58,364 nucleotides of DNA from Microseira sp. BLCC-F43 (GTDB taxonomy: Bacteria > Cyanobacteriota > Cyanobacteriia > Cyanobacteriales > Aerosakkonemataceae): positions 1 to 58,364 of the forward strand of contig NZ_JBHFNP010000225.1 in NCBI RefSeq assembly GCF_041929235.1, given 5' to 3'. The notes under the pieces were generated by a model that was given only the letters and a program-made list of their open reading frames with translations, was not told the DNA's origin and made no database searches. Below, piece after piece: positions 1,404 to 32,755 of the stretch (position 1 is its first letter; every line of letters begins with the position of its first letter). A program made the position numbers and the translations under genes.

Positions 1404-4400
1404 TTAAATTGTTACGCCTTCCAATTCTTCATCTGTCAACTCATACAATTCGCGTAACTTCTGCAACTTTTCAGGATCGGCTTCCCAAAAACCTCGCCCG
1501 TGCGCTTCTAACATTCTGCCCACAATATTGCGAAAAGCTTCTGGATTTGCTTCGCGCAATTTCTTCGCCATTTCTGCATCTAAAGCATAAGTATCCGCCG
1601 CCTGATCGTAAACCCAATTATCGGTAAAATCAGCCGTACCACCCCACCCAATTAACGCCGTCATCCGTTGGGAAATTTCATACGCGCCGCCGCTACCTTG
1701 ATTCGCCATTGCATCTGCCCATTTGGGATTTAATAACTTAGTGCGATATTCCATCCTCAGCAAATCTTCTAAATTGCGCGGCGTTGTATCTTTCGAGAAA
1801 CTTTCCACAAAACTAGCATTAACCTTCTTACCTTGTTGTTTCTCCGCCGCCTTTTTCAAACCACCCGTATTGGCATAATATTCTTGAATATCGGTTAAAC
1901 CATATTCAACCGAATCAATTTCTTGCACCACGCGACGAGTACTTTGCAATAGTTGGTTTAAAACTTCCTTGCGAGATTGACCTTTATCATTTCTGCCGTA
2001 ACTGAAGGCATTGCGACTTTCCCAAGTACCCGCCAACTCTTCTCCAGAGTCCCAATTTCCATCAGTAACTCGCTCATTTACTAGCGAACCAAAATCGCCA
2101 GCGGGGTTCGAGAATAGACGCGCAGTGGGATTGGGGATATTTTGCGATCGCATCCCCAAAACATGTTTTCTGATAAAATTCATCTCCTCCGGTTCATCCG
2201 CATCCGCCGCCCGTTGAAACAGATCGTCCAACAACTCAATAATATTGACAAAACTATCGCGAAAAATCCCCGAAAGATTAGCCAAAACATCAATCCGAGG
2301 ATGCCCAACATCCTCCAAAGATTTCAACTCATAACGCACAATCCGCCCCGTACCTTCCTTGACGGGTTCCGCCCCCACCAACTCCAACAAAATCCCCAAA
2401 GATTCACCCTTAGTTTTAATCGCATCCAACCCCCACAACATAACAGCAACCGTCTCCGGATACTCCCCATGTTCCTCCAAATGTTGATCGATAATCTTCC
2501 GCCCAATTTCCCTCCCCCGTTCATAAGCACCAGCAGAAGGCATCCTATAAGGATCTAAAGCATGAATATTCCGCCCCGTAGGCAAAACACCCGCACCATC
2601 TCTTAACAAATCACCCCCCGGTGCAGGCGGAATATACTCCCCATTCAACCCCCGCAACAAATTCCTCAACTCCTCCGTATTGCGCCCCAACAACTCTCCA
2701 ATCTTTCTCCTCTCCTCTTCCTCTTCTCCGCGTCCTCTGCGTCTCTGCGGTTCATTCTCTTCCTCTCCAAAATAAGCATCAAAATACGATGCCAACTCCT
2801 CATCATTTGGTGGTTCACCCAAAGTATGCAACCCCGAAGAAAACAGACGAGTTTCCAACACTTGCAAATACTCGTACAACTTGACTAAATACTCATTAAA
2901 TGCATGGGCACTAAACATCCGGACATTCTCCGGCGTAAAAGAAATGCCCAACTTTTTAGCATCCTCAAACGGACAATCAGCCTCCAATCCCGTATCCACA
3001 ATCTTCTTACAAATCGCCTCCTTAAGCGCATAATTCTTTTGCGGATCTTCCCGATATTCCGAGATTAAATCTCGCAGCGCCACTAATTCCTTATACAACC
3101 CCGCCCTCCCGTAAGGCGGCACATTGTGAGAAATCAGCACCCCATATCCGCGACGCTTCGCCAGGATAGATTCAGATGGATTATTCGCGGCATAGATATA
3201 CAAATTGGGAACATCTCCCAATAAGATATCAGGCCAAGAATAACCTGTATTTCCTAACGGAGATCCGGGCAACCATTCAACCGTACCGTGCATTCCAAAG
3301 TGAACTACAGCATCGGCTTGAAACTCATTTTGCAACCATTTATAAAAAGCTGCATATTGGGGATGGGGCGTCATATCCCGTTCAAACATTAGTCGCATCG
3401 GGTCGCCTGCAATTCCCAAAGGTGGTTGCACGCCAATCCAAATATTTCCTAACTCGATACCGCCGATGTAATATTCATCTCCGTATGTTTTGATACCGCT
3501 GCTGGTGAGAGATTTCCACTGCTTTTCGATGCGGGTTGTGAGTAGGTAACCCAGCCATTTATCCAGAGTTTTGGCATTGACAGTGTTGTACTGATTTCCA
3601 TCAAGTATCGAGTCAATAACTGGTTCCTCTTTTTTGCTACGAATTGTAGGTTCATCTGCTTGTTTAACGCGGCGGATTAATTCTTCTCCATCTTCTGGTA
3701 ATTCGCCGACTGTGTAACCTTGTTCTTTAAGTGCTTGGAGTAATTTAAGCAGACTGCGAGGTACATTTAATAATGCAGCCGTTCCAACTGCCCCATATCC
3801 AGGCGGGAAACCGTAGAGAAGAATGGCAACTTTTCGTTTTGAAGCAGGTTTTTGTCTTAATTTAATCCAATTTTTCAATCTGCCAGTTAAACGCTTGACT
3901 CGTTCGGGAATCAGATAAATATCTTCTCCAACTAACCCGCCTAATGGCACTGTATCAATTGCTCCATCTAATTCTGGCAATGCATATAATACGACACTTT
4001 GCAATCCTCCAATACCTTGGCGCGTCCAGGAATGGATATCTTGAATTAGCAAAGGTGCGGCAACGATATAAGGTATATTCTTGGCAGTTAAAATCCTTTT
4101 TGATACTTCTATCTGGCGTCCTGCCTCCATCGAACCAGCAGGGCCACCTACGAGGGGAAATCCGATGGTAGAAACTATAGCATCTACTTGGACTGCTTCG
4201 TTAGATAGAGAAGGTGTTTCAATATTACCAAGTTGACGTTGATTGGTTTCATATTGAGTTGTCATCCAATCGCGCACGGCGACATGCCCTTCAACTCCAT
4301 TAATAAAAATAGGTAAGGGAATGAGTCCAGCTTCTTCAAAGTAGTTAATTAATTTAAGAATATAAGGCTGTTTGGTTACAACGTGTTTGCGATAAAGCAA

Positions 4401-5111
4401 AATTCCAACTACTGGCAGATGGCGGGTTTCCGGTTTCGCTTGGCGATACCATTCTAAATATTGCCGCGGCGATTCAAAATATCCTTGATAGTCTGGGTGT
4501 AACAAACCCATGTTGGGGGTTTCGACTGGGGGCGGGATTTCTCCTACTTTTAATTCCAGATATTTTTCGGCTATTGTCCAGAACATGGAGGCGACGTTAT
4601 CTGTGCCGCCAGCATTCCAATAACCGTAAATAATCAGCCAGTTTCGCAAGTCTTGGACTTTTTGTACTGGGACGTATTTTAATAGTTTCGGCCCTACTTT
4701 CAGGAAGCTGATATAACCGGCGAGTTTGTCTTCTTCTTTGCCGTTGCTGAATTTATCTAAAATGAATTTAACGGGTTTGGGCATTCCTTTGGGTTTATCG
4801 CCTATTTTGAACGCACCAATTTGGGTTAAACTCATCAATTCTAAGGCGGACTCGAAGACGAGGCGGATGGGAATCTGCTGCACTCTTTCGCGCAACCACA
4901 TTACTTGGTCGTAGTCAAAGATTAAACTGGCGAAGAAGACATCTGCGCCAACGAGTGCGTCGGCGACGACTTCTGGTGAGGTGTTGAGGGCGCGATCGCT
5001 AAACACCCGCACATCCAACTCCGGACAGCGGGAAGTCGCCAACTGTGCGGCTTTCCGGTACAAGTCAGCGTTGAAGGATTCAAACCCAGCGATCAGAACA
5101 ATGCGTTTCAT
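1404..5111 (-). CDS. cobN: CobN/magnesium-chelatase large-subunit family protein (cobaltochelatase CobN-like).
   Basis: 1235 aa. Has the full-length CobN/ChlH domain architecture. It is a paralog of the 28566..32570 protein, sharing blocks such as LRGLNGEYIPPAPGGD and PTGRNIHALDP. An acidic low-complexity insert (EEENEPQRRRGRGEEEEERR) is encoded by a CT-rich tract near 2690..2770. Confidence 0.8.
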   Translation of the reverse strand: MKRIVLIAGFESFNADLYRKAAQLATSRCPELDVRVFSDRALNTSPEVVADALVGADVFFASLIFDYDQVMWLRERVQQIPIRLVFESALELMSLTQIGAFKIGDKPKGMPKPVKFILDKFSNGKEEDKLAGYISFLKVGPKLLKYVPVQKVQDLRNWLIIYGYWNAGGTDNVASMFWTIAEKYLELKVGEIPPPVETPNMGLLHPDYQGYFESPRQYLEWYRQAKPETRHLPVVGILLYRKHVVTKQPYILKLINYFEEAGLIPLPIFINGVEGHVAVRDWMTTQYETNQRQLGNIETPSLSNEAVQVDAIVSTIGFPLVGGPAGSMEAGRQIEVSKRILTAKNIPYIVAAPLLIQDIHSWTRQGIGGLQSVVLYALPELDGAIDTVPLGGLVGEDIYLIPERVKRLTGRLKNWIKLRQKPASKRKVAILLYGFPPGYGAVGTAALLNVPRSLLKLLQALKEQGYTVGELPEDGEELIRRVKQADEPTIRSKKEEPVIDSILDGNQYNTVNAKTLDKWLGYLLTTRIEKQWKSLTSSGIKTYGDEYYIGGIELGNIWIGVQPPLGIAGDPMRLMFERDMTPHPQYAAFYKWLQNEFQADAVVHFGMHGTVEWLPGSPLGNTGYSWPDILLGDVPNLYIYAANNPSESILAKRRGYGVLISHNVPPYGRAGLYKELVALRDLISEYREDPQKNYALKEAICKKIVDTGLEADCPFEDAKKLGISFTPENVRMFSAHAFNEYLVKLYEYLQVLETRLFSSGLHTLGEPPNDEELASYFDAYFGEEENEPQRRRGRGEEEEERRKIGELLGRNTEELRNLLRGLNGEYIPPAPGGDLLRDGAGVLPTGRNIHALDPYRMPSAGAYERGREIGRKIIDQHLEEHGEYPETVAVMLWGLDAIKTKGESLGILLELVGAEPVKEGTGRIVRYELKSLEDVGHPRIDVLANLSGIFRDSFVNIIELLDDLFQRAADADEPEEMNFIRKHVLGMRSQNIPNPTARLFSNPAGDFGSLVNERVTDGNWDSGEELAGTWESRNAFSYGRNDKGQSRKEVLNQLLQSTRRVVQEIDSVEYGLTDIQEYYANTGGLKKAAEKQQGKKVNASFVESFSKDTTPRNLEDLLRMEYRTKLLNPKWADAMANQGSGGAYEISQRMTALIGWGGTADFTDNWVYDQAADTYALDAEMAKKLREANPEAFRNIVGRMLEAHGRGFWEADPEKLQKLRELYELTDEELEGVTI

Positions 5112-5228: not shown

Positions 5229-6419
5229 TCAATTGCGGTTAGAAGCTTCATGTTGCTGCCGCTGGCGTTTCGCAAAAGAACCAGCACCCACAGCACCCAA
5301 CGCCAAGAATGCCAGTGCAGAAGAGGGTTCGGGAACAGATTTGGAAGTATTGGGTGTTAAGAGGAAGGCTCGCTGTTGACCATTGTAAAAGCCGCGACCC
5401 ACAATCTGTCCCGCATTGTTGATGTCTACTACACTGTTTAGTGTCCAGCCAGGAGCGGAAACCAAGTCGTTGAGGTCGCTGATGCCACTGCTCTTTTCCC
5501 AGAAGAAGGGACGATTTTGCCCAGAAGTGATGTATGAGTAACCAATTACCTGGCCTAAGTTATTGATGTCAATGGGATTGATTCCGTTATCCCCTAGAGT
5601 ACCCAAGTCAGTCATGCCGCTGCTCTTTTCCCACAAGAAGGCGTGATTTTGCCCATTAGCGATGTTGGATTGACCAACCACTTGACCTAAGTTGTTAATG
5701 GCATAAGCAGCGCTAAAGTTACCCCCCAGAGTACCCAGGTTAGTCATGCCGCCGCTCTTTTCCCACAAGAAGGCGCGATCGCCATCAGTGGTGGATGAGT
5801 AACCAACCACCTGACCATAGTCGTTGATGGCTGTGCCATAAGTATAGCTATAGCCATAATAACTCCCCAGTGTACCTAGGTTAATCATGTCGCTGCCCTT
5901 TTCCCACACGAAGGCGCGATTTTGCCCATAACCAGAAAAGTAGGTGTATGTGTTACCAAGCATCTGACCTAAATTGTTGATGGCTGTGGCAAAGGCATAG
6001 CCATAGATACTTCTCGGTGGACCCAGCTCAATCATGCCGCTGCTCTTGTCCCAGAAGAAGGGATTTTCCCCATAGTTGTTCGCTCTATTACCAACGACTT
6101 GACCTAAGTCGTTGATCGCTGTGGCATAAGTATAGCCAGACCAGTTGCCATAGCCATAGATACTTCTCGGTGGATCCAGGTTAATCATGCCGCTGCTTTT
6201 GTCCCACAAGAAGGCGCGATTTCCCCCACCAGCGGTGTTTGAGCTACCAACCACCTGACCATACTCGTTTATGGCATAGGCAGAACTAGAGTCACCCCCC
6301 AGCGTACCCAGGTCTGTGATAGAAAAACTGATAGCATCGGCTCTTTGGGCGCTGGTGATTCCCAAGAATGCAGCGGCAGTTAGTGCCATACCAACTTTGC
6401 AAGCATTGAGTATTTTCAT
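5229..6419 (-). CDS. HAF-repeat extracellular protein with a PEP-CTERM sorting signal (paralog 1 of 4).
   Basis: Signal peptide MKILNACKVGMALTAAAFLG..AQRADA. About 40-aa repeats NxxGQVVG...(R/H)AFLWEKSSGMxDLGTLGG, including HAFLW. The C-terminal VPEPSSALAFLALGAVGAG..KRQRQQ is a PEP-CTERM motif followed by a TM helix and a basic tail. Confidence 0.8.
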   Translation of the reverse strand: MKILNACKVGMALTAAAFLGITSAQRADAISFSITDLGTLGGDSSSAYAINEYGQVVGSSNTAGGGNRAFLWDKSSGMINLDPPRSIYGYGNWSGYTYATAINDLGQVVGNRANNYGENPFFWDKSSGMIELGPPRSIYGYAFATAINNLGQMLGNTYTYFSGYGQNRAFVWEKGSDMINLGTLGSYYGYSYTYGTAINDYGQVVGYSSTTDGDRAFLWEKSGGMTNLGTLGGNFSAAYAINNLGQVVGQSNIANGQNHAFLWEKSSGMTDLGTLGDNGINPIDINNLGQVIGYSYITSGQNRPFFWEKSSGISDLNDLVSAPGWTLNSVVDINNAGQIVGRGFYNGQQRAFLLTPNTSKSVPEPSSALAFLALGAVGAGSFAKRQRQQHEASNRN

Positions 6420-7575: not shown

Positions 7576-7907
7576 GCTGAATCGAGCGATCTTGGCAGCT
7601 TGAATTCTGATTTTGAGAGAAGGCGATCGCTTTTTCACCAACTCAGGCGCGAACGCGAGTGCGGAAGGGAGGCATATCGCTCTCACACACGCACATCCAA
7701 CTTGGCGCAACCAGGCAATCAACTCGAAACATTTCTTCATCTTTCACTGAATTAAAAGAATCGTCGGCTAAAACAGATTAGGAGATTTTCCGCCAACTCA
7801 ACTCCTATGCCTGGGGTAGCCAAGCGATCAACCAAAACCCCTGTAGAAATCCCATCAAAGGACAAAAGCATCAAGTTACCAAAACTTTTATCACCTTCTT
7901 TAAGAGC

Positions 7908-16568: not shown

Positions 16569-17717
16569 TCAATTGCGACTAGAAGCCTCGTGTTGCAGCC
16601 GCTGGCGCTTCGCCGCACCAGCACCCACAGCACCCAATGCCAAGAATGCCAGCGCAGAAGAGGGTTCGGGAACAGATTTGGAAGTATTGGGCGTTAAGAG
16701 GAAGGCACGGTATTGACCATTGTAAAGGCCATAGCCCGCAATCTGCCCCGCATTGTTGATTCCTACTACATTGTCTAGTATCCAGTCAGGAGCCCAAACC
16801 AAGTCGTTGAGGTCACTGATGCCGCTGCTCTTTTCCCACAAGAAGGGGCGCATTCGCCCATCAGCGGTGGCTGAGTAACCAAGCACCTGACCATAGTTGT
16901 TGATGGCTATGGCAAAGCTAAAGTCACCCCCCAGAGTACCCAGGTCACTCATACCGCTGCTCTTTTCCCAGAAGAAGCTGCGATATGGACTAGCAGCGGT
17001 GAATAACCAACCAATCACCTGACCATAGTCGTTGATGGCTCTGGCAAAACTAAAGTCACCCCCCAGAGTACCCAGGTCACTCATACCGCTGCTCTTTTCC
17101 CACAAGAAGGCGCGATATGGCCCATTTGCGTCGTATAAGCTACCAACCACCTGACCATAGTTGTTAATGGCTCTGGCATAGCTAGATTTACCCCCCAGAG
17201 TACCCAGGTTAACCATGCCGCTGCTCTTTTCCCACAAGAAGGGGCGACCTTGCCCATCAGCGGTGTTTGATTGACCAACTACCTGACCTAAGTTGTTGAT
17301 GGCATTGGCAGAACTATAGTCACCCCCCAGAGTACCCAGGTCACTCATGCCGCTGCTCTTGTCCCAGAAGAAGGCACGACTTTGCCCATCAGCGGTGCTT
17401 GAATTACCAATCACCTGACCATAGTCGTTGATGGCAGAGGCACCGCTATTGTTACCCCCCAGAGTACCCAGGTCACTCATGCCGCTGCTCTTTTCCCACA
17501 AGAAGGCGCGACCTTGCCCATCAGCGGTGTTTGAGCTACCAACCACCTGACCATACTCGTTGATGTCTGTGGCATAGCTCTGGTTATAGTCACCCCCCAG
17601 CGTACCGATGTCGGTGAGAGAAAAAGTAATAGCATCCGCAGGTTGGGAGGTAGCTAGTCCCAAGAACGCAGCGGCAGTTAGTGCCATACCGACTTTGCAA
17701 GCATTGAGTATTTTCAT
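16569..17717 (-). CDS. HAF-repeat PEP-CTERM protein (paralog 4).
   Basis: Signal peptide MKILNACKVGMALTAAAFLGLATSQPADA, HAF repeats, and C-terminal VPEPSSALAFLALGAVGAGAAKRQRLQHE. Confidence 0.8.
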   Translation of the reverse strand: MKILNACKVGMALTAAAFLGLATSQPADAITFSLTDIGTLGGDYNQSYATDINEYGQVVGSSNTADGQGRAFLWEKSSGMSDLGTLGGNNSGASAINDYGQVIGNSSTADGQSRAFFWDKSSGMSDLGTLGGDYSSANAINNLGQVVGQSNTADGQGRPFLWEKSSGMVNLGTLGGKSSYARAINNYGQVVGSLYDANGPYRAFLWEKSSGMSDLGTLGGDFSFARAINDYGQVIGWLFTAASPYRSFFWEKSSGMSDLGTLGGDFSFAIAINNYGQVLGYSATADGRMRPFLWEKSSGISDLNDLVWAPDWILDNVVGINNAGQIAGYGLYNGQYRAFLLTPNTSKSVPEPSSALAFLALGAVGAGAAKRQRLQHEASSRN

Positions 17718-25204: not shown

Positions 25205-25292
25205 CCCCATTACCAATTAGCAATTAGCAATTAGCAATTAGCAATTAGCAATCCCCATTACCAATTAGCAATTAGCAATTAGCAATTACCAA
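25205..25292. repeat. STRR-like heptamer array (CAATTAG/CAATTAC)n.
   Basis: ccaattagcaattagcaattagcaattagcaatccccattaccaattagcaattagcaattagcaattacc. A matching array at 26053..26092 flanks the other side of nanE. Confidence 0.7.
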
Positions 25293-25962
25293 TCCCCTCT
25301 ACATACGCTTTTACCAAATAATCAATCCCGGTAATAGCCGTACCAACTACAACTGCATAAGCACCTAAATTAAGCGCTTCTCGTGCCATTTTTGGAGAAG
25401 AAATACCGCCTTCGCAAATTACGGGAATGTCTAATTTTTCTACCATTTGAGTCAGCAATTCAAAACCGGGGGGAGACAAATGTTTGGTTTCGTTTGTGTA
25501 ACCGTAGAGAGTTGTTCCTACAATATCAGCACCCGCTTGGGCAGCTGACTTCGCATTCTCAATTGTATCCACATCCGCCATCACCAATTTGCCCAATTCA
25601 TCGTGAATTCGCTTAATTAACCCCGCGACTGTTTCCCCATTCGGGCGTTGTCGCAGCGTCGCGTCGATGGCGATGATATCCGCACCCGCAGAGGCGATCG
25701 CTTCTGCGTCTTCATACCGTGGTGTAATGTAAACTTCATAACCTGGTATTTGCTGTTTCCACAGTCCGATAATCGGCAATTTAACTTTTTGCCGCACCGC
25801 GCTGACATGATAGGGAGTATCAATTCGCAACCCTACTGCGCCTTGGTTCACCGCCGCTTGCGCGATTGCAGCAATGATCGCGGGATCGTGTAGCGGCGAG
25901 TCAGCAGGCGCCTGACAGGAAACAATTAGACCTCCACGGAGCGATATCATTTCTGGTAACAT
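25279..25962 (-). CDS. nanE: N-acetylmannosamine-6-phosphate 2-epimerase (NanE family).
   Basis: GGLIVSCQAPADSPLHDP near the N-terminus and the overall TIM-barrel NanE pattern. The start is set at MLPEMISLRGG. Confidence 0.7.
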   Translation of the reverse strand: MLPEMISLRGGLIVSCQAPADSPLHDPAIIAAIAQAAVNQGAVGLRIDTPYHVSAVRQKVKLPIIGLWKQQIPGYEVYITPRYEDAEAIASAGADIIAIDATLRQRPNGETVAGLIKRIHDELGKLVMADVDTIENAKSAAQAGADIVGTTLYGYTNETKHLSPPGFELLTQMVEKLDIPVICEGGISSPKMAREALNLGAYAVVVGTAITGIDYLVKAYVEGIGNC

Positions 25963-26098
25963 AAGCTGATTTTTGTAGGGGCGGGTTTTACCAATAACCA
26001 TTAAACTGCAACAGATCGTTAAAATAAACCCGCCCCTTTTTGGGTATGAGGAGAATTAGCAATTAGCAATTAGCAATTAGCAATTACCAATCCACCCA

Positions 26099-28565: not shown

Positions 28566-31500
28566 ATGCATCGTATCGCCGCCACCCCTGGGGGTTGGAA
28601 TCCTGACACTGAAGGTGTAATCTTTGTCGAGCAAACCCCTGCTCCTATAGTCATTCTGACTGCTGCCGACACCGATATTCAAACCCTGGTTGCCGCTGTC
28701 AAGCAACTACCCGATGACTTTCCAGCACTACGGGTGGTCAATCTATTGCAGTTGCAGCAACAGCTAACCATCGATACCTATGCAGAACTTGTTCTGACAT
28801 CAGCACGGGTAATTATCCTGCGGTTATTGGGGGGACGCGCTTACTGGTCTTATGGATTGGAAGTCCTACAGGAGACAGTACGGCAAACCGGCGCCGCACT
28901 GATTGTACTCCCCGGAGATGACCGCCCCGACCCCGATTTGCTCGCTCTTTCCACGGTTTCTCTATCAAAGGTTAACCAAGTATGGCGCTACTTCACCGAA
29001 GGCGGCAGCGAAAATTGCGTTAACGCCCTCAAATTTGTCGCCGATATCTGCCTGGGACAATCCCACAACCCACCGCCACCCCAAGAAGTGCCGCGGGTGG
29101 GGCTTTATCGGCAAGAGGACTCTTGGACGCGGGGACCCGGAGACGCGGGGAATGACATCGACCCATCTTGTTCCCTACTTCCTAAAGTGGGACTGTTGTT
29201 TTATCGCGCGCATTATTTGGCGGGAAATACACTCCCAATTGATGCGCTTTGTCAAGCTTTAGCGGCACGACAGTTAGAACCAGTGCCGGTATTTGTTTCT
29301 TCGTTGCGCGATCGCGATGTCCAAGCCGAATTATCCCAATATTTCCAGCCGCCAGAAACAGCACCCGTGCAACTGATACTCAACACCACCAGTTTTGCAG
29401 TTGCAGATTTTAGCTTTTCGATTAGACTTGAGCCAAAATTCAGCCCCAAGACAGGCGAGACGCCTATTCCACAAGATTTATGGGAGAAGTCTAATTCAGA
29501 TTCAATCCACAATCTAGATGTCCCCGTTTTGCAAGTTATCCTCAGCGGCGGCACTGTAGAACAGTGGTCAGCCCAATTTCAGGGACTTTCCCCCCGCGAT
29601 ATGGCGATGAATGTCGCGCTACCAGAGGTGGATGGGCGAATCATTACCCGTGCGGTTTCTTTTAAAGCAATACAAACCCAAAATTCCCAGTTAGAGACGG
29701 ATGTAGTAATTTATCAACCCCATTTAGAACGGATAGAATTTGTGGCCGAATTAGCCGCTAACTGGGTGCGACTGCGGCAAACTCCCCCAGAAAAGCGACG
29801 AATTGCTCTAATTTTGGCAAATTATCCGTGTCGCGATGGCAGACTCGCCAATGGTGTGGGACTCGATACCCCTGCAAGTTGTGTAGAAATTCTCAAGGCG
29901 CTGCAACAAGCTGGATACTGGGTAGAAAATATACCCGCAACGGGGGATGAACTGATGCAACGTTTAACCGCTGGGGTGACCAATGACCCCGAAGGGCAAC
30001 AATTGCGCCCCGCAATGCAGCAGTTATCTTTGGAGGAATATCAAGCGTATTTTGCTACCTTGCCAGTTGAGGTGCAGAAAGAAATATGCGATCGCTGGGG
30101 AATTGGTAATGGGTCATTCCATTCCCAGGCGGAACCAGGGAACGAGGGTAATAGCAAAGAAAACCAATTAGCAATTAGCAATTACCAATTAGCAATTCCC
30201 GGCATTCAACTAGGCAATATTTTTGTCGGAATTCAACCGAGTCGGGGCTACGATCTCGACCCCAGTTTAAACTACCACGCCCCGGATTTAGAACCGCCCC
30301 ATAATTATCTGGCGTTTTATTATTGGGTGCGAAAACATTTTGGCTGTCACGCGATCGCTCATATCGGCAAGCACGGTAATTTAGAATGGTTACCGGGTAA
30401 AAGCGTCGCCCTATCGAATCAATGTTATCCCGAAATCGCCCTCGGCGCTTTGCCCCACCTCTACCCATTTATTGTCAACGACCCCGGTGAAGGTTCATCT
30501 GCAAAACGTCGCGCCCAAGCGGTTATTATCGCTCACCTCACGCCACCGATGACCAGGGCAGAATTATACGGTCCGCTGCAACAATTGGAAAGTTTAATAG
30601 ACGAGTATTACGAAGCACAGAATTTAGACCCCTCCCGACTCCCAGCAATCCGATCGCGCATCGCCCAGCTAGTAGAAAAAGAAAACTTGCATCAAGACTT
30701 GCAAATCGCTAATAGGCAAGAAAACCAATTACCCATTACCAATTACCCATTACCAATTACCCAACTAGACGGCTATCTTTGCGAACTAAAAGAAGCCCAA
30801 ATACGCGATGGGTTGCATATTTTTGGCCAATGTCCCCCAGGACGACAACTGCGAGATTTGATAGTTGCGATCGCTCGTCATCCAGGGGTCGGTCGTCTCG
30901 GTTTAACTCGCGCCTTAGCTCAAGATTTCGGCCTAGATTTTGACCCGCTTACCGCTGATATGTCAGCAGGTATTAGCCATCAGTCATCAATCATTGGTAA
31001 AGAATGTCGCACCGTCGGCGATATGGTTGAACTTCTGGAAGAACATGCAGCTAAATTAGTCGAACAACTAATATCTGAGTGCGAACAGCACACCTGCACA
31101 AGAGCATCTTTAAAAGCCACCCAACGCGAACTAGACTGGATACGCGCGCACCTCCTCCCCGCATTGCAACAAACTCACCAAGAAATTACCAACCTGTTGC
31201 GCGGACTCGACGGGCGCTTCGTCCCCCCCGCCCCCTCTGGCGCACCCACGCGGGGACGCCCGGAGGTTTTACCCACTGGTCGCAATTTTTACTCAGTTGA
31301 TATCAGGGGAATTCCCACCGAAACAGCTTGGGATGTCGGACGCAAGGCGGCAGAAGCTTTAATCGAACGCTACGCCCAAGAAAACGGAGAGTATCCGAAA
31401 GCACTGTGTTTATCCGTATGGGGGACATCCACGATGCGGACTGGCGGCGACGACATCGCCGAAGCATTGGCGTTAATCGGCGTCCAGCCGGTGTGGGATG

Positions 31501-32570
31501 GCCCGTCGCGGCGGGTGGTAGATTTTGAAATTTTACCAATATCGATTTTGGGGCGTCCCCGCGTAGATGTGACGTTGAGAATTTCCGGCTTTTTCCGGGA
31601 TGCTTTCCCGAATTTAATCGATTTATTCGACCAAGCCGTCGCAGCCGTGGCGGCGCTGGATGAGACGCCGGATGGCAATCCTTTGGCAGCTGCTGTGCGC
31701 CAGGAAACCCAGATGTGGATAGGTGCTGGGGTGGGAGAAGAACAGGCATTAGTGCGATCGCGCTATCGTATTTTTGGCTCAAAACCTGGTGCTTACGGTG
31801 CGGGATTGCAAGGTTTAATTGAATCCCAAAACTGGACAGATGAACAAGACCTTGCCCGTGCCTATATTAACTGGAGTTGTTACGCTTATACATCAGGATT
31901 TGGTAATAGGTCATTCCATTCCCAGGCGGAGTCAGGGAACGAGGGTAAAAACCAATTACCGATTACCAATTACCCATTACCCAACGCAGATCCAGAAGCC
32001 TTTGAACAGCGACTGCGGCAAATGCAAATAGTATTGCACAATCAAGATAACCGGGAACACGACTTACTAGATTCAGATGATTACTATCAGTTTCAAGGCG
32101 GTTTAACGGCATCGGTGCGTGCATTAACGGGCAAAAATCCTCAAACCTATTTCGGCGATAATTCTATTCCGAGTAATCCCAAAGTTAGGCAGTTAAAATC
32201 AGAAATTGCCCGCGTGTATCGTTCGCGCGTCGTTAATCCTAAATGGATTGCTGGGGCGATGCGCCACGGTTACAAAGGCGCGTTTGAAATCGCAGCAACG
32301 GTAGATTATTTATTTGCCTACGATGCAACGGCTAACTGCGTAGAAGATTTTATGTATGAAGGAGTTGCAGAAGCATATTTATTCGCTCCAGATGTACAGG
32401 CATTTATTCAACAGAAAAACCCTTGGGCATTGCGAGATATGGCAGAACGTTTGTTAGAAGCAAACCAGCGGGGTTTGTGGCAAAAAGTTGACCCAGAAAC
32501 CGTGGATAAATTGCGAGCGATCGCCCACCAAGCAGAAGCCAATATAGAAGCTACAAACTTCACATTGTAA
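28566..32570 (+). CDS. cobN: CobN/magnesium-chelatase-family protein (second paralog) carrying three in-frame repeat-element insertions.
   Basis: 1334 aa. Collinear with the 1404..5111 paralog. Extra peptide segments SFHSQAEPGNEGNSKENQLAISNYQLAIP, NRQENQLPITNYPLPITQ and SFHSQAESGNEGKNQLPITNYPLP are encoded by the repeat DNA at 30104..30200, 30715..30772 and 31898..31985. Confidence 0.8.
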   Translation: MHRIAATPGGWNPDTEGVIFVEQTPAPIVILTAADTDIQTLVAAVKQLPDDFPALRVVNLLQLQQQLTIDTYAELVLTSARVIILRLLGGRAYWSYGLEVLQETVRQTGAALIVLPGDDRPDPDLLALSTVSLSKVNQVWRYFTEGGSENCVNALKFVADICLGQSHNPPPPQEVPRVGLYRQEDSWTRGPGDAGNDIDPSCSLLPKVGLLFYRAHYLAGNTLPIDALCQALAARQLEPVPVFVSSLRDRDVQAELSQYFQPPETAPVQLILNTTSFAVADFSFSIRLEPKFSPKTGETPIPQDLWEKSNSDSIHNLDVPVLQVILSGGTVEQWSAQFQGLSPRDMAMNVALPEVDGRIITRAVSFKAIQTQNSQLETDVVIYQPHLERIEFVAELAANWVRLRQTPPEKRRIALILANYPCRDGRLANGVGLDTPASCVEILKALQQAGYWVENIPATGDELMQRLTAGVTNDPEGQQLRPAMQQLSLEEYQAYFATLPVEVQKEICDRWGIGNGSFHSQAEPGNEGNSKENQLAISNYQLAIPGIQLGNIFVGIQPSRGYDLDPSLNYHAPDLEPPHNYLAFYYWVRKHFGCHAIAHIGKHGNLEWLPGKSVALSNQCYPEIALGALPHLYPFIVNDPGEGSSAKRRAQAVIIAHLTPPMTRAELYGPLQQLESLIDEYYEAQNLDPSRLPAIRSRIAQLVEKENLHQDLQIANRQENQLPITNYPLPITQLDGYLCELKEAQIRDGLHIFGQCPPGRQLRDLIVAIARHPGVGRLGLTRALAQDFGLDFDPLTADMSAGISHQSSIIGKECRTVGDMVELLEEHAAKLVEQLISECEQHTCTRASLKATQRELDWIRAHLLPALQQTHQEITNLLRGLDGRFVPPAPSGAPTRGRPEVLPTGRNFYSVDIRGIPTETAWDVGRKAAEALIERYAQENGEYPKALCLSVWGTSTMRTGGDDIAEALALIGVQPVWDGPSRRVVDFEILPISILGRPRVDVTLRISGFFRDAFPNLIDLFDQAVAAVAALDETPDGNPLAAAVRQETQMWIGAGVGEEQALVRSRYRIFGSKPGAYGAGLQGLIESQNWTDEQDLARAYINWSCYAYTSGFGNRSFHSQAESGNEGKNQLPITNYPLPNADPEAFEQRLRQMQIVLHNQDNREHDLLDSDDYYQFQGGLTASVRALTGKNPQTYFGDNSIPSNPKVRQLKSEIARVYRSRVVNPKWIAGAMRHGYKGAFEIAATVDYLFAYDATANCVEDFMYEGVAEAYLFAPDVQAFIQQKNPWALRDMAERLLEANQRGLWQKVDPETVDKLRAIAHQAEANIEATNFTL
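30104..30200. repeat. Intragenic insertion of about 95 bp: conserved head ggtaat(g/a)ggtcattccattcccaggcgga.cagggaacgagggtaa plus a CAATTAG/CAATTAC heptamer array.
   Basis: A near-identical element lies at 31898..31985. A related heptamer array lies at 30715..30772. All are multiples of 3 bp and keep the cobN reading frame. Confidence 0.65.
31898..31985. repeat. Second copy of the intragenic repeat element inside cobN.
   Basis: tggtaataggtcattccattcccaggcggagtcagggaacgagggtaaaaaccaattaccgattaccaattacccattacc. Confidence 0.65.
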
Positions 32571-32573
32571 TAT

Positions 32574-32646
32574 TGGCTAATCGCTAATCGCTAATCGCAA
32601 AAAGGCCATTACCAATTACCAATTAGCAATTAGCCATTAGCCATTT
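32574..32646. repeat. STRR-like heptamer arrays (CTAATCG)n and (CAATTAC/G)n downstream of cobN.
   Basis: gctaatcgctaatcgctaatcgc ... ccattaccaattaccaattagcaattagccattagccatt. Confidence 0.7.
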
Positions 32647-32755
32647 ATATGATGTCCGGCAAATTGCCCTTAATTAAAACTCTCCGCGTCCCCGCATCCC
32701 CGCGTCCCCGCGTCAGTCCTAACTATGGGTATTCAAGCGTACATGATATTACAGA

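Follow-up and report, generated by a model that had tools for sequence, protein, structure and literature searches.

The cobN gene of the cyanobacterium Microseira sp. BLCC-F43, which encodes the large subunit of cobaltochelatase in the vitamin B12 pathway, carries repeat DNA of its own genome in frame at several places and is nevertheless an open, intact gene. Our preferred explanation, which we consider very probable, is that these repeats are passengers in a functional gene, retained where the tolerance of the loop, the strand, the repeat variant and the length happen to be compatible. The gene lies in a stretch of 58,364 nucleotides from contig NZ_JBHFNP010000225.1, called the window below; the features discussed are collected in Table 1. 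A previous look at the letters of this DNA, the sequence-only reading, had placed in-frame repeats at three positions in the gene. The sequence of the window and its translation confirmed repeat DNA in frame at all three (sites 1, 2 and 3), and we found a fourth in-frame repeat beyond them, a short octamer array (site 0).

Sites 1 and 3 share the 40-mer GGTCATTCCATTCCCAGGCGGANCCAGGGAACGAGGGTAA, which has just two occurrences in the window (30112-30151 and 31909-31948), with zero and one mismatch, respectively; by chance none would be expected. Within it lies a 29-nt head with the core TCCATTCCCAGGCGGAnnCAGGGAACGAG, found at these two sites only and bounded at both by the reverse-oriented heptamer units GGTCAT and GGTAAT. 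Each of the three sites also contains an array of heptamers, at 30163-30197, 30724-30763 and 31951-31983; all are in frame and are translated as NQLAISNYQLAIP, NQLPITNYPLPIT and NQLPITNYPLP. The insert peptides predicted from the reading frame are SFHSQAEPGNEG, NQLAISNYQLAIPGIQ, NQLPITNYPLPITQ and SFHSQAESGNEGK. The whole site-1 insert folds into one long imperfect hairpin (DNA z-score -4.6), and its ends are inverted heptamers (GGAATTGGTAAT / ATTAGCAATTCC). Immediately 5' of site 1 is a HIP1 site (GCGATCGC, 30088-30095), which encodes the conserved C-D-R of ...CDRWG.

The sequence-only reading had described a single heptamer-repeat mobile element with a head and heptamers at every site. This layout is correct for sites 1 and 3, but site 2 has a GAAAACC leader and heptamers only. 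The insert is a composite of tandem heptamers and a separately gained or lost 29-nt hairpin remnant, and not one element, because relatives have heptamers without the head and site 2 never had a head.

We asked how secure the identity of the host gene is. Its product scores 1643.8 bits against TIGR02257, with residues 1-1325 covering model positions 1-1226, and so passes the curated equivalog cutoff of 822.05 over its full length. The nearest solved structures are both CobN proteins (9uk9_A, 1161.6 bits, E=0; 7c6o_A, 871.9 bits), whereas the ChlH structure 4zhj_A scores only 407.9 bits. By these homology scores the product is a genuine CobN; it is 100% identical to WP_374882479.1 of the same strain. 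The sequence-only reading had set it against a first CobN paralog without the loops, encoded at 1404..5111 on the minus strand. That protein does lack the loops of sites 1 and 3, but it is of the BchH/ChlH type, a magnesium-chelatase H subunit (TIGR02025, 1587 bits) with 31% identity to CobN.

To measure selection on the gene, we aligned its DNA with that of three relatives, L001 (92% nucleotide identity), L003 (90%) and L002 (86%), and estimated the ratio of non-synonymous to synonymous substitution rates (dN/dS) by the Nei-Gojobori method over about 1160-1210 core codons. All six pairwise comparisons gave dN/dS values of 0.15-0.20, at dS values of 0.23-0.49. The open reading frame (ORF) contains zero internal stops in 1334 aa, as had been claimed, and complete open ORFs are likewise found in L001 and L002. 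In L003 the contig end interrupts the ORF, with no internal stop up to there, and a full-length cluster relative of this copy, P0129 (1368 aa), is complete. Every indel among the four sequences is a multiple of three. The spans first assigned to the inserts (97, 58 and 88 nt) do not agree with the claim that each is a multiple of three; the true indels, of 33 nt or in steps of 21 nt, do. Judged from these alignments, cobN is functional, under purifying selection and not decaying.

The inserts are polymorphic among these close relatives. At site 3, the head is present in the window and in L003 and absent from L001, L002 and Microseira wollei; L001 and L002 read GGTAAT-CGAAAGC-AAAACC there, without a head, a difference of 33 nt. 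The site-3 heptamers are kept in all four lineages (the window, L001, L002 and L003). The CobN of M. wollei NIES-4236 is 97% identical over 514 residues, and the single indel in the 525 aligned residues is the 11-codon site-3 head. At site 1, the head is present in L003, partly deleted in L001 and absent from L002, which has the headless sequence GGGTCAT GGGTAAT TGGTAAT together with one additional heptamer block of 21 nt (7 aa). The site-2 array of L003 is shorter than that of the window by 21 nt (3 units). L001 carries other repeats at this site (L001 5200-5260), GCAGATG x3 and AATCTAAAATCTGAA, in place of AATTACC heptamers. The octamers of site 0 are common to the window and L001, and unrelated sequence stands there in L002 and L003.

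A further position, site 4, is empty in the window and in L002 and filled in other lineages. In L001 it holds two tandem 69-nt double-hairpin copies, both in the opposite orientation and in frame (NSFPGSAWERDPRGSASLTPPPF x2) and with a perfect stem of 13 bp; L003 carries a single copy and M. wollei NIES-4236 at least two. By presence and absence, sites 1, 3 and 4 each sort the lineages into different groups, and this conflict implies repeated gain, loss or recombination. The M. wollei NIES-4236 cobN (P0126/P0127, on a 13779-bp contig) is annotated as partial pieces only, since its contig breaks off within the tandem double-hairpin copies of site 4.

We then compared the positions of the inserts with the variation found in 120 aligned cyanobacterial CobNs of 1247-1412 aa (66-100% identity). 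Only seven regions vary strongly in length, and these are sites 0, 1, 2, 3 and 4 plus two more. The loops range from 11 to 118 aa at site 0, from 15 to 61 aa at site 1 and from 7 to 84 aa at site 3. Their content is specific to each lineage and resembles repeats, as in the peptides GMGNGEW, SPFPIPN, ETNRRGAEDAEE and PPLSKGGLGG. At least 25 of the 120 proteins show peptide repeats of period 7, which are the mark of translated heptamers. In a Nostoc sp. cobN (L141 3530-3700 and 5340-5560), site 1 contains nine TGGGGAC units, an A-rich GAAAAC spacer and six AATCCCC-type units, which give WGLGTGD repeats, and site 3 contains translated CTCCTAA heptamers. The same loops are thus occupied in Nostoc and Microseira by a different, genome-specific heptamer.

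The inserts are missing from the shortest CobN orthologs (1247 aa), and in the solved CobN 9uk9_A, sites 1 and 2 fall in alignment gaps and site 3 has 6 residues compared to 31 here. That distant orthologs do not have the same segments bears out the proposal that these are insertions and not ancestral segments. An AlphaFold2 model of residues 400-1334, built with 60 homologs, places the three inserts in coil with a predicted local distance difference test (pLDDT) score below 50. This model is weak (mean pLDDT 65, predicted template modelling score 0.40), and we used it only as a weak hint of disorder because it is too weak for a fold search. The length variation in the alignment indicates that the sites are insertion-tolerant, hypervariable loops.

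The heptamers in cobN belong to the same AATTACC/AATTAGC family as the neighbouring intergenic arrays. The window contains 11 head-to-tail heptamer arrays of at least 21 nt, and the only ones inside an ORF are the three in cobN. Given that 7 and 3 are coprime, arrays of this length are read in all three phases. An (AATTACC)n array is stop-free on the forward strand only, because its complement contains TAA; an (AATTAGC)n array is closed in all six frames, because it contains TAG forward and TAA in reverse. The stop-containing variant, AATTAGC, predominates in intergenic arrays. The coding arrays in cobN are all forward and of ACC type or ACC-rich, and in the mixed array of site 1 the sole unit that could place TAG in frame has TAC instead. 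Heptamer number in cobN shifts in steps of 21 nt, that is, three units or seven codons. The strand, the variant and the use of TAC for TAG in the coding arrays are what a filter by selection would predict. We also count the three-unit steps, and the decay of the head hairpins in this gene, among the marks of such a filter.

The head belongs to a larger family. We scanned one genome per species with the pattern CCCAGGCGGANNCNGGGAAYGAG and recovered at least 120 loci. The consensus, about 50 nt long, consists of GAGGCNGAGCCTC, a spacer and TTCCCAGGCGGAGCCTGGGAACGAG, and is near-identical across Cyanobacteria, Planctomycetota and Desulfobacterota. It comprises two hairpins: hairpin 1 is GAGGC(A/G)GAGCCTC and hairpin 2 is TTCCCAGGC(G/A)GAGCCTGGGAACGAG, with CCCAGG starting mostly 9-13 nt past the hairpin-1 stem. 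Among the matches listed, 29 of 120 loci are cyanobacterial (Oscillatoria, Hormoscilla, Microseira, Iningainema, Calothrix, Scytonema and Nostoc), and the remainder are mostly from Planctomycetota, followed by Desulfobacterota; the few in metagenome-assembled genomes of other phyla may be binning noise. Hairpin 1 is present in 118 of 155 copies among these matches.

The hairpin-1 stem covaries, with pairs such as CGAG/CTCG, GGAG/CTCC, GCAG/CTGC, TGAG/CTCA, GCCG/CGGC and others, and when the partner strand was shifted by one position as a control, no more than 2 bp ever paired. This pattern suggests that compensatory changes maintain the stem. Some planctomycete loci (L009, L028 and L052) have inverted doublets spaced by about 100 nt. 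The window itself holds one full-length intergenic copy, a long, nearly perfect hairpin; the GATCTTGCAC motifs that flank it also lie beside Hormoscilla copies. The cobN heads are remnants of hairpin 2. Each has two stem mismatches (at site 1, relative to the canonical TTCCCAGGCGGAGCCTGGGAA), and their folding energies are -9.5 and -9.4 kcal/mol (z about -1.1 to -1.2), compared to -17 kcal/mol (z -3.8) for the canonical form.

No Rfam model matches the head or the double hairpin; the sole real Rfam matches were unrelated Acido-Lenti-1 RNAs at one planctomycete locus. Our literature search found no paper with the double-hairpin sequence or its peptides. A protein search with the insert peptide returned 4 candidates and missed the query's own protein, and is uninformative for short, low-complexity peptides of this kind.

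Copies of the family also lie inside other genes. In M. wollei NIES-4236, a head with the same flanks (L005 6690-6760) and in the same frame (GNRSSHSQADPGNEGN) as in cobN splits the HATPase_c domain of a PAS histidine kinase between profile positions 35 and 36 (L005 6690-7300). This locus also holds a long PMPQE-type repeat cluster and AATTACC heptamers, and the remainder of HATPase_c downstream of the cluster is in another frame, which means that the gene is either a pseudogene or misassembled at its repeats. In Oscillatoria princeps (L070, about 7590-7612), a full copy in frame splits the AAA_16 domain of a STAND kinase-type protein, immediately ahead of its Walker A strand. A hairpin-2 copy in Hormoscilla (L036 5243-5265) lies in frame between the WHD and AAA domains of an AAA ATPase. 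We accepted as intragenic these three cyanobacterial cases, which have Pfam domains on both sides. Long ORFs also run across family copies in planctomycete genomes, but we did not accept these as intragenic, since high-GC genomes contain many spurious ORFs.

Taken together, these genes use all four open frames of the family, as SQAEPGNE, FPGGAWER, PRRSQGTR and, on the reverse strand, FPGSAWER. The use of four frames argues against any selected peptide. The sequence-only reading had offered selection of the element for translatability as one of two explanations; this is not needed, given the four frames and heptamers that behave as the filter predicts.

These observations can be put together as follows. 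cobN would passively collect its genome's own repeat DNA in insertion-tolerant loops. Heptamers, partly as inverted arrays around an A-rich centre, would grow and shrink within the gene by 21-nt steps, and a very small hairpin element would account for the 29-nt remnant at sites 1 and 3 and the full copies of about 69 nt at site 4 of the sister lineages. Purifying selection on CobN would act as the filter, so that survivors are those in permissive loops with a net length of 3n and a stop-free orientation and frame. The added peptides (SFHSQAEPGNEG, NYQLPIT...) would be by-products. On this account the loops are probably surface-exposed and neutral, the head presumably moves by transposition-like insertion and not by recombination, and the heptamers are likely to change via slippage or gene conversion.

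Several points weigh against parts of this account. The cobN relatives show no target-site duplication and no clean empty/filled pair at the ends of the head, and their "empty" sites differ by a few flanking bases; recombination or gene conversion between heptamer tracts could therefore equally explain the gain and loss of the head. The census of the 58-kb window is small, with two heads and one full copy only. A metagenome scan with the Microseira-type left flank, GGTCATYCCATTCCCAGGCGGA, gave zero matches, and a looser pattern returned general family members only and no Microseira-type heads. Surface exposure is suggested mainly by alignment gaps relative to the solved homolog, the structural model being weak, and translation of the inserts is a prediction from the reading frame. 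We assume neutrality, but the loops or the mRNA hairpins may conceivably have a role.

Such a role is the first alternative to consider. The peptides or the mRNA hairpins could serve CobN as flexible linkers, interaction surfaces, translational pauses or signals for regulated mRNA decay. The same loops have been hit repeatedly in many genera, the entire site-1 insert folds into a strong hairpin, and the inserts have been kept over a dS of about 0.2-0.5, all of which would fit an adaptive role. Against this, their sequence, length and presence vary between lineages that are 86-97% identical, the 1247-aa orthologs do without them and the solved CobN is short at sites 1-3. The head hairpins in this cobN are decayed, and different genes translate the family in differing frames. 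We therefore regard adaptive loops as unlikely.

It is very improbable that the inserts are ancestral, fast-evolving low-complexity loops that resemble repeats by chance, or that they are assembly artefacts. The variability of these loops across cyanobacterial CobNs would be expected of such loops, but a chance resemblance would have to produce a 40-nt head twice with at most one mismatch, and the same head with its flanks in an unrelated M. wollei gene. In addition, the heptamers match intergenic arrays a few kb away, the difference from the 97%-identical ortholog is a clean 11 codons, and four independent assemblies agree on the architecture.

The other explanation in the sequence-only reading, that this cobN is a young pseudogene or a pseudogene-in-waiting with the inserts as its first lesions, we find scarcely credible. 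The M. wollei histidine kinase, which has the same head and is out of frame downstream of its repeat cluster, and the M. wollei cobN reported in partial pieces, from a contig that ends in the site-4 repeats, are what could be cited for it; the low dN/dS in all six pairs, the full-length equivalog score, the in-frame indels, the ORFs open in the window, L001 and L002 and the complete P0129 speak against it. Inteins, introns and programmed bypass were rejected, as the inserts are far too short and show no sequence sign of such a mechanism.

Passenger repeats of this kind invite comparison with known repeat systems. Elhai and colleagues reportedly described in 2008 the small dispersed repeats SDR1-8 of the Nostocaceae, hairpin-associated sequences of 21-27 nt that are reportedly often nested in tandem heptamers. 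The 29-nt head is similar in its size and in being nested among heptamers (cobN sites 1 and 3; M. wollei L005). The Nostocaceae SDRs are cited again in PMC3116915, and a later study found no SDR-like repeat outside the Nostocaceae and proposed HIP1 as the insertion site of SDR5 (PMC5861425). Unlike the SDRs, the repeats described here have a host in the Aerosakkonemataceae, and the double-hairpin family reaches Planctomycetota and Desulfobacterota.

The heptamers resemble the short tandemly repeated repetitive (STRR) sequences of heterocystous cyanobacteria (Calothrix and Nostoc) in forming abundant, genome-specific and mostly intergenic period-7 arrays; Nostoc heptamer repeats are over-represented in intergenic and under-represented in coding DNA (PMC4692102). 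They differ in their unit, AATTACC/AATTAGC, which is not G-rich or classical, and in that three arrays lie inside the frame of a conserved enzyme. Repetitive extragenic palindromic (REP) elements and REPINs, which are mobilised by REP-associated tyrosine transposases (RAYTs; PMC3116915, PMC3733652), are likewise short conserved palindromes in many copies, some as inverted doublets, with covarying stems. In contrast to these, the double hairpin has no GTAG or CGTC tag, is not strictly extragenic and is near-identical across phyla, which is unusual for REPs. No RAYT turned up among the ten ORFs around cobN, although no search aimed at RAYTs was made. A comparison with miniature inverted-repeat transposable elements rests on the inverted heptamer ends of the site-1 hairpin (z -4.6), but we see no target-site duplication, and the empty sites differ in a few flanking bases.

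In behaviour, the parallel is with the Rickettsia palindromic elements (RPEs), which are described as selfish palindromes in frame within protein-coding genes (Ogata et al. 2000, reviewed in PMC10969869). Both are small dispersed palindromic repeats that sit in frame inside unrelated functional genes and add a peptide. RPEs do so where the fold tolerates it, and the cobN inserts, which align to gaps or short loops of 9uk9_A, probably do so too. As with RPEs, we see copies at several unrelated loci, including different genes, and presence/absence polymorphism at orthologous positions. RPEs, however, are about 100-150 bp long, have obligate intracellular alpha-proteobacteria as hosts and share no sequence relation with these repeats, whereas the pieces here are 29-69 nt, are combined with tandem heptamers and come from free-living filamentous cyanobacteria. 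In many RPE families the encoded peptide is conserved, whereas the double-hairpin family is read in four frames. The relation is an analogy of behaviour only and not one of family membership.

If read in this way, cobN offers a case outside Rickettsia of repeat DNA in the frame of a conserved enzyme under purifying selection, with empty and filled alleles among close relatives. It also indicates that heptamers persist in coding sequence given the right strand, the right variant and 21-nt steps. CobN loops that tolerate up to about 100 inserted residues should be useful for engineering, and for annotation as well, because contigs break in the repeats and leave genes annotated as partial. The analysis also brings to light a double-hairpin repeat that is widely distributed and has no RNA-family model.

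A broader interpretation is possible but doubtful, namely that the head family is an undescribed, cross-phylum class of double-hairpin mobile element of about 50 nt and that the CobN loops are ancient landing pads. The element may be able to land in frame inside essential enzymes, and each genome may keep overwriting the heptamers in the landing pads with those of its own family (AATTACC in Microseira, TGGGGAC/AATCCCC in Nostoc). If true, this overwriting would imply active, sequence-directed copying of repeats beyond slippage.

Table 1. Positions of cobN, its repeat sites and related repeats in the window, with example loci of the double-hairpin family in other genomes.
Feature	Position	Strand	Remarks
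cobN, cobaltochelatase large subunit	28566..32570	+	1334 aa; intact host gene
Site 0, about 3 octamer units of the GGGGACGC family	29125..29151	+	In frame (aa 187-196, WTRGPGDAGN); TRF
Site 1 left arm, reverse-oriented heptamer units GGTAATG GGTCAT	30105..30117	+	Read from sequence
Site 1 head, TCCATTCCCAGGCGGAACCAGGGAACGAG	30118..30146	+	Decayed hairpin-2 copy; translated FHSQAEPGNE
Site 1 right part, GGTAAT, A-rich spacer AGCAAAGAAAAC, 4.7 forward heptamers CAATTAG/CAATTAC	30147..30197	+	Heptamers NQLAISNYQLAI
Site 2, GAAAACC leader and 5 forward heptamers AATTACC/CATTACC	30720..30763	+	Without head; ENQLPITNYPLPIT
Site 4, empty here (aa 806-810, HQSSI)	30981..30995	+	Full double-hairpin copies in relatives
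Site 3 left arm, GGTAAT A GGTCAT	31902..31914	+	
Site 3 head, TCCATTCCCAGGCGGAGTCAGGGAACGAG	31915..31943	+	Translated FHSQAESGNE
Site 3 right part, AAAACC leader and 4 forward heptamers AATTACC/GATTACC/CATTACC	31948..31982	+	Translated NQLPITNYPLP
Intergenic inverted heptamer module, (GCTAATC)3, A-rich spacer, (CATTACC/AATTAGC)n	32571..32650	+	Directly after the cobN stop
Intergenic AATTAGC heptamer arrays	25214..25293	+	Similar array at 26054-26091
Intergenic full-length double-hairpin copy, GAGGCAGAGCCTC ... CGTTCCCAGGTTGAACCTGGGAACGAG	12300..12385	-	RNA fold -47 kcal/mol, z-score -6.0
Double-hairpin repeat, example loci (from L004-L140)	L004 1014-1081; L010 600-760; L124 1420-1690		

The intergenic module that follows the cobN stop has the same architecture as the site-1 insert (DNA fold z-score -3.8) and could act as a terminator-like hairpin. 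The octamer family of site 0 (GGGGACGC / TGACGCGG) is also found at two intergenic places, 32681-32714 and 12748-12782. The neighbours of cobN are signalling proteins and a NanE-like enzyme, with no transposase among the ten ORFs scanned around it. Elsewhere in the window, four paralogous minus-strand ORFs contain 132-nt (44-aa) tandem repeats (5482-5816, 13364-14293, 14842-15641 and 16810-17579); the one of these that we tested is DUF3466-like.

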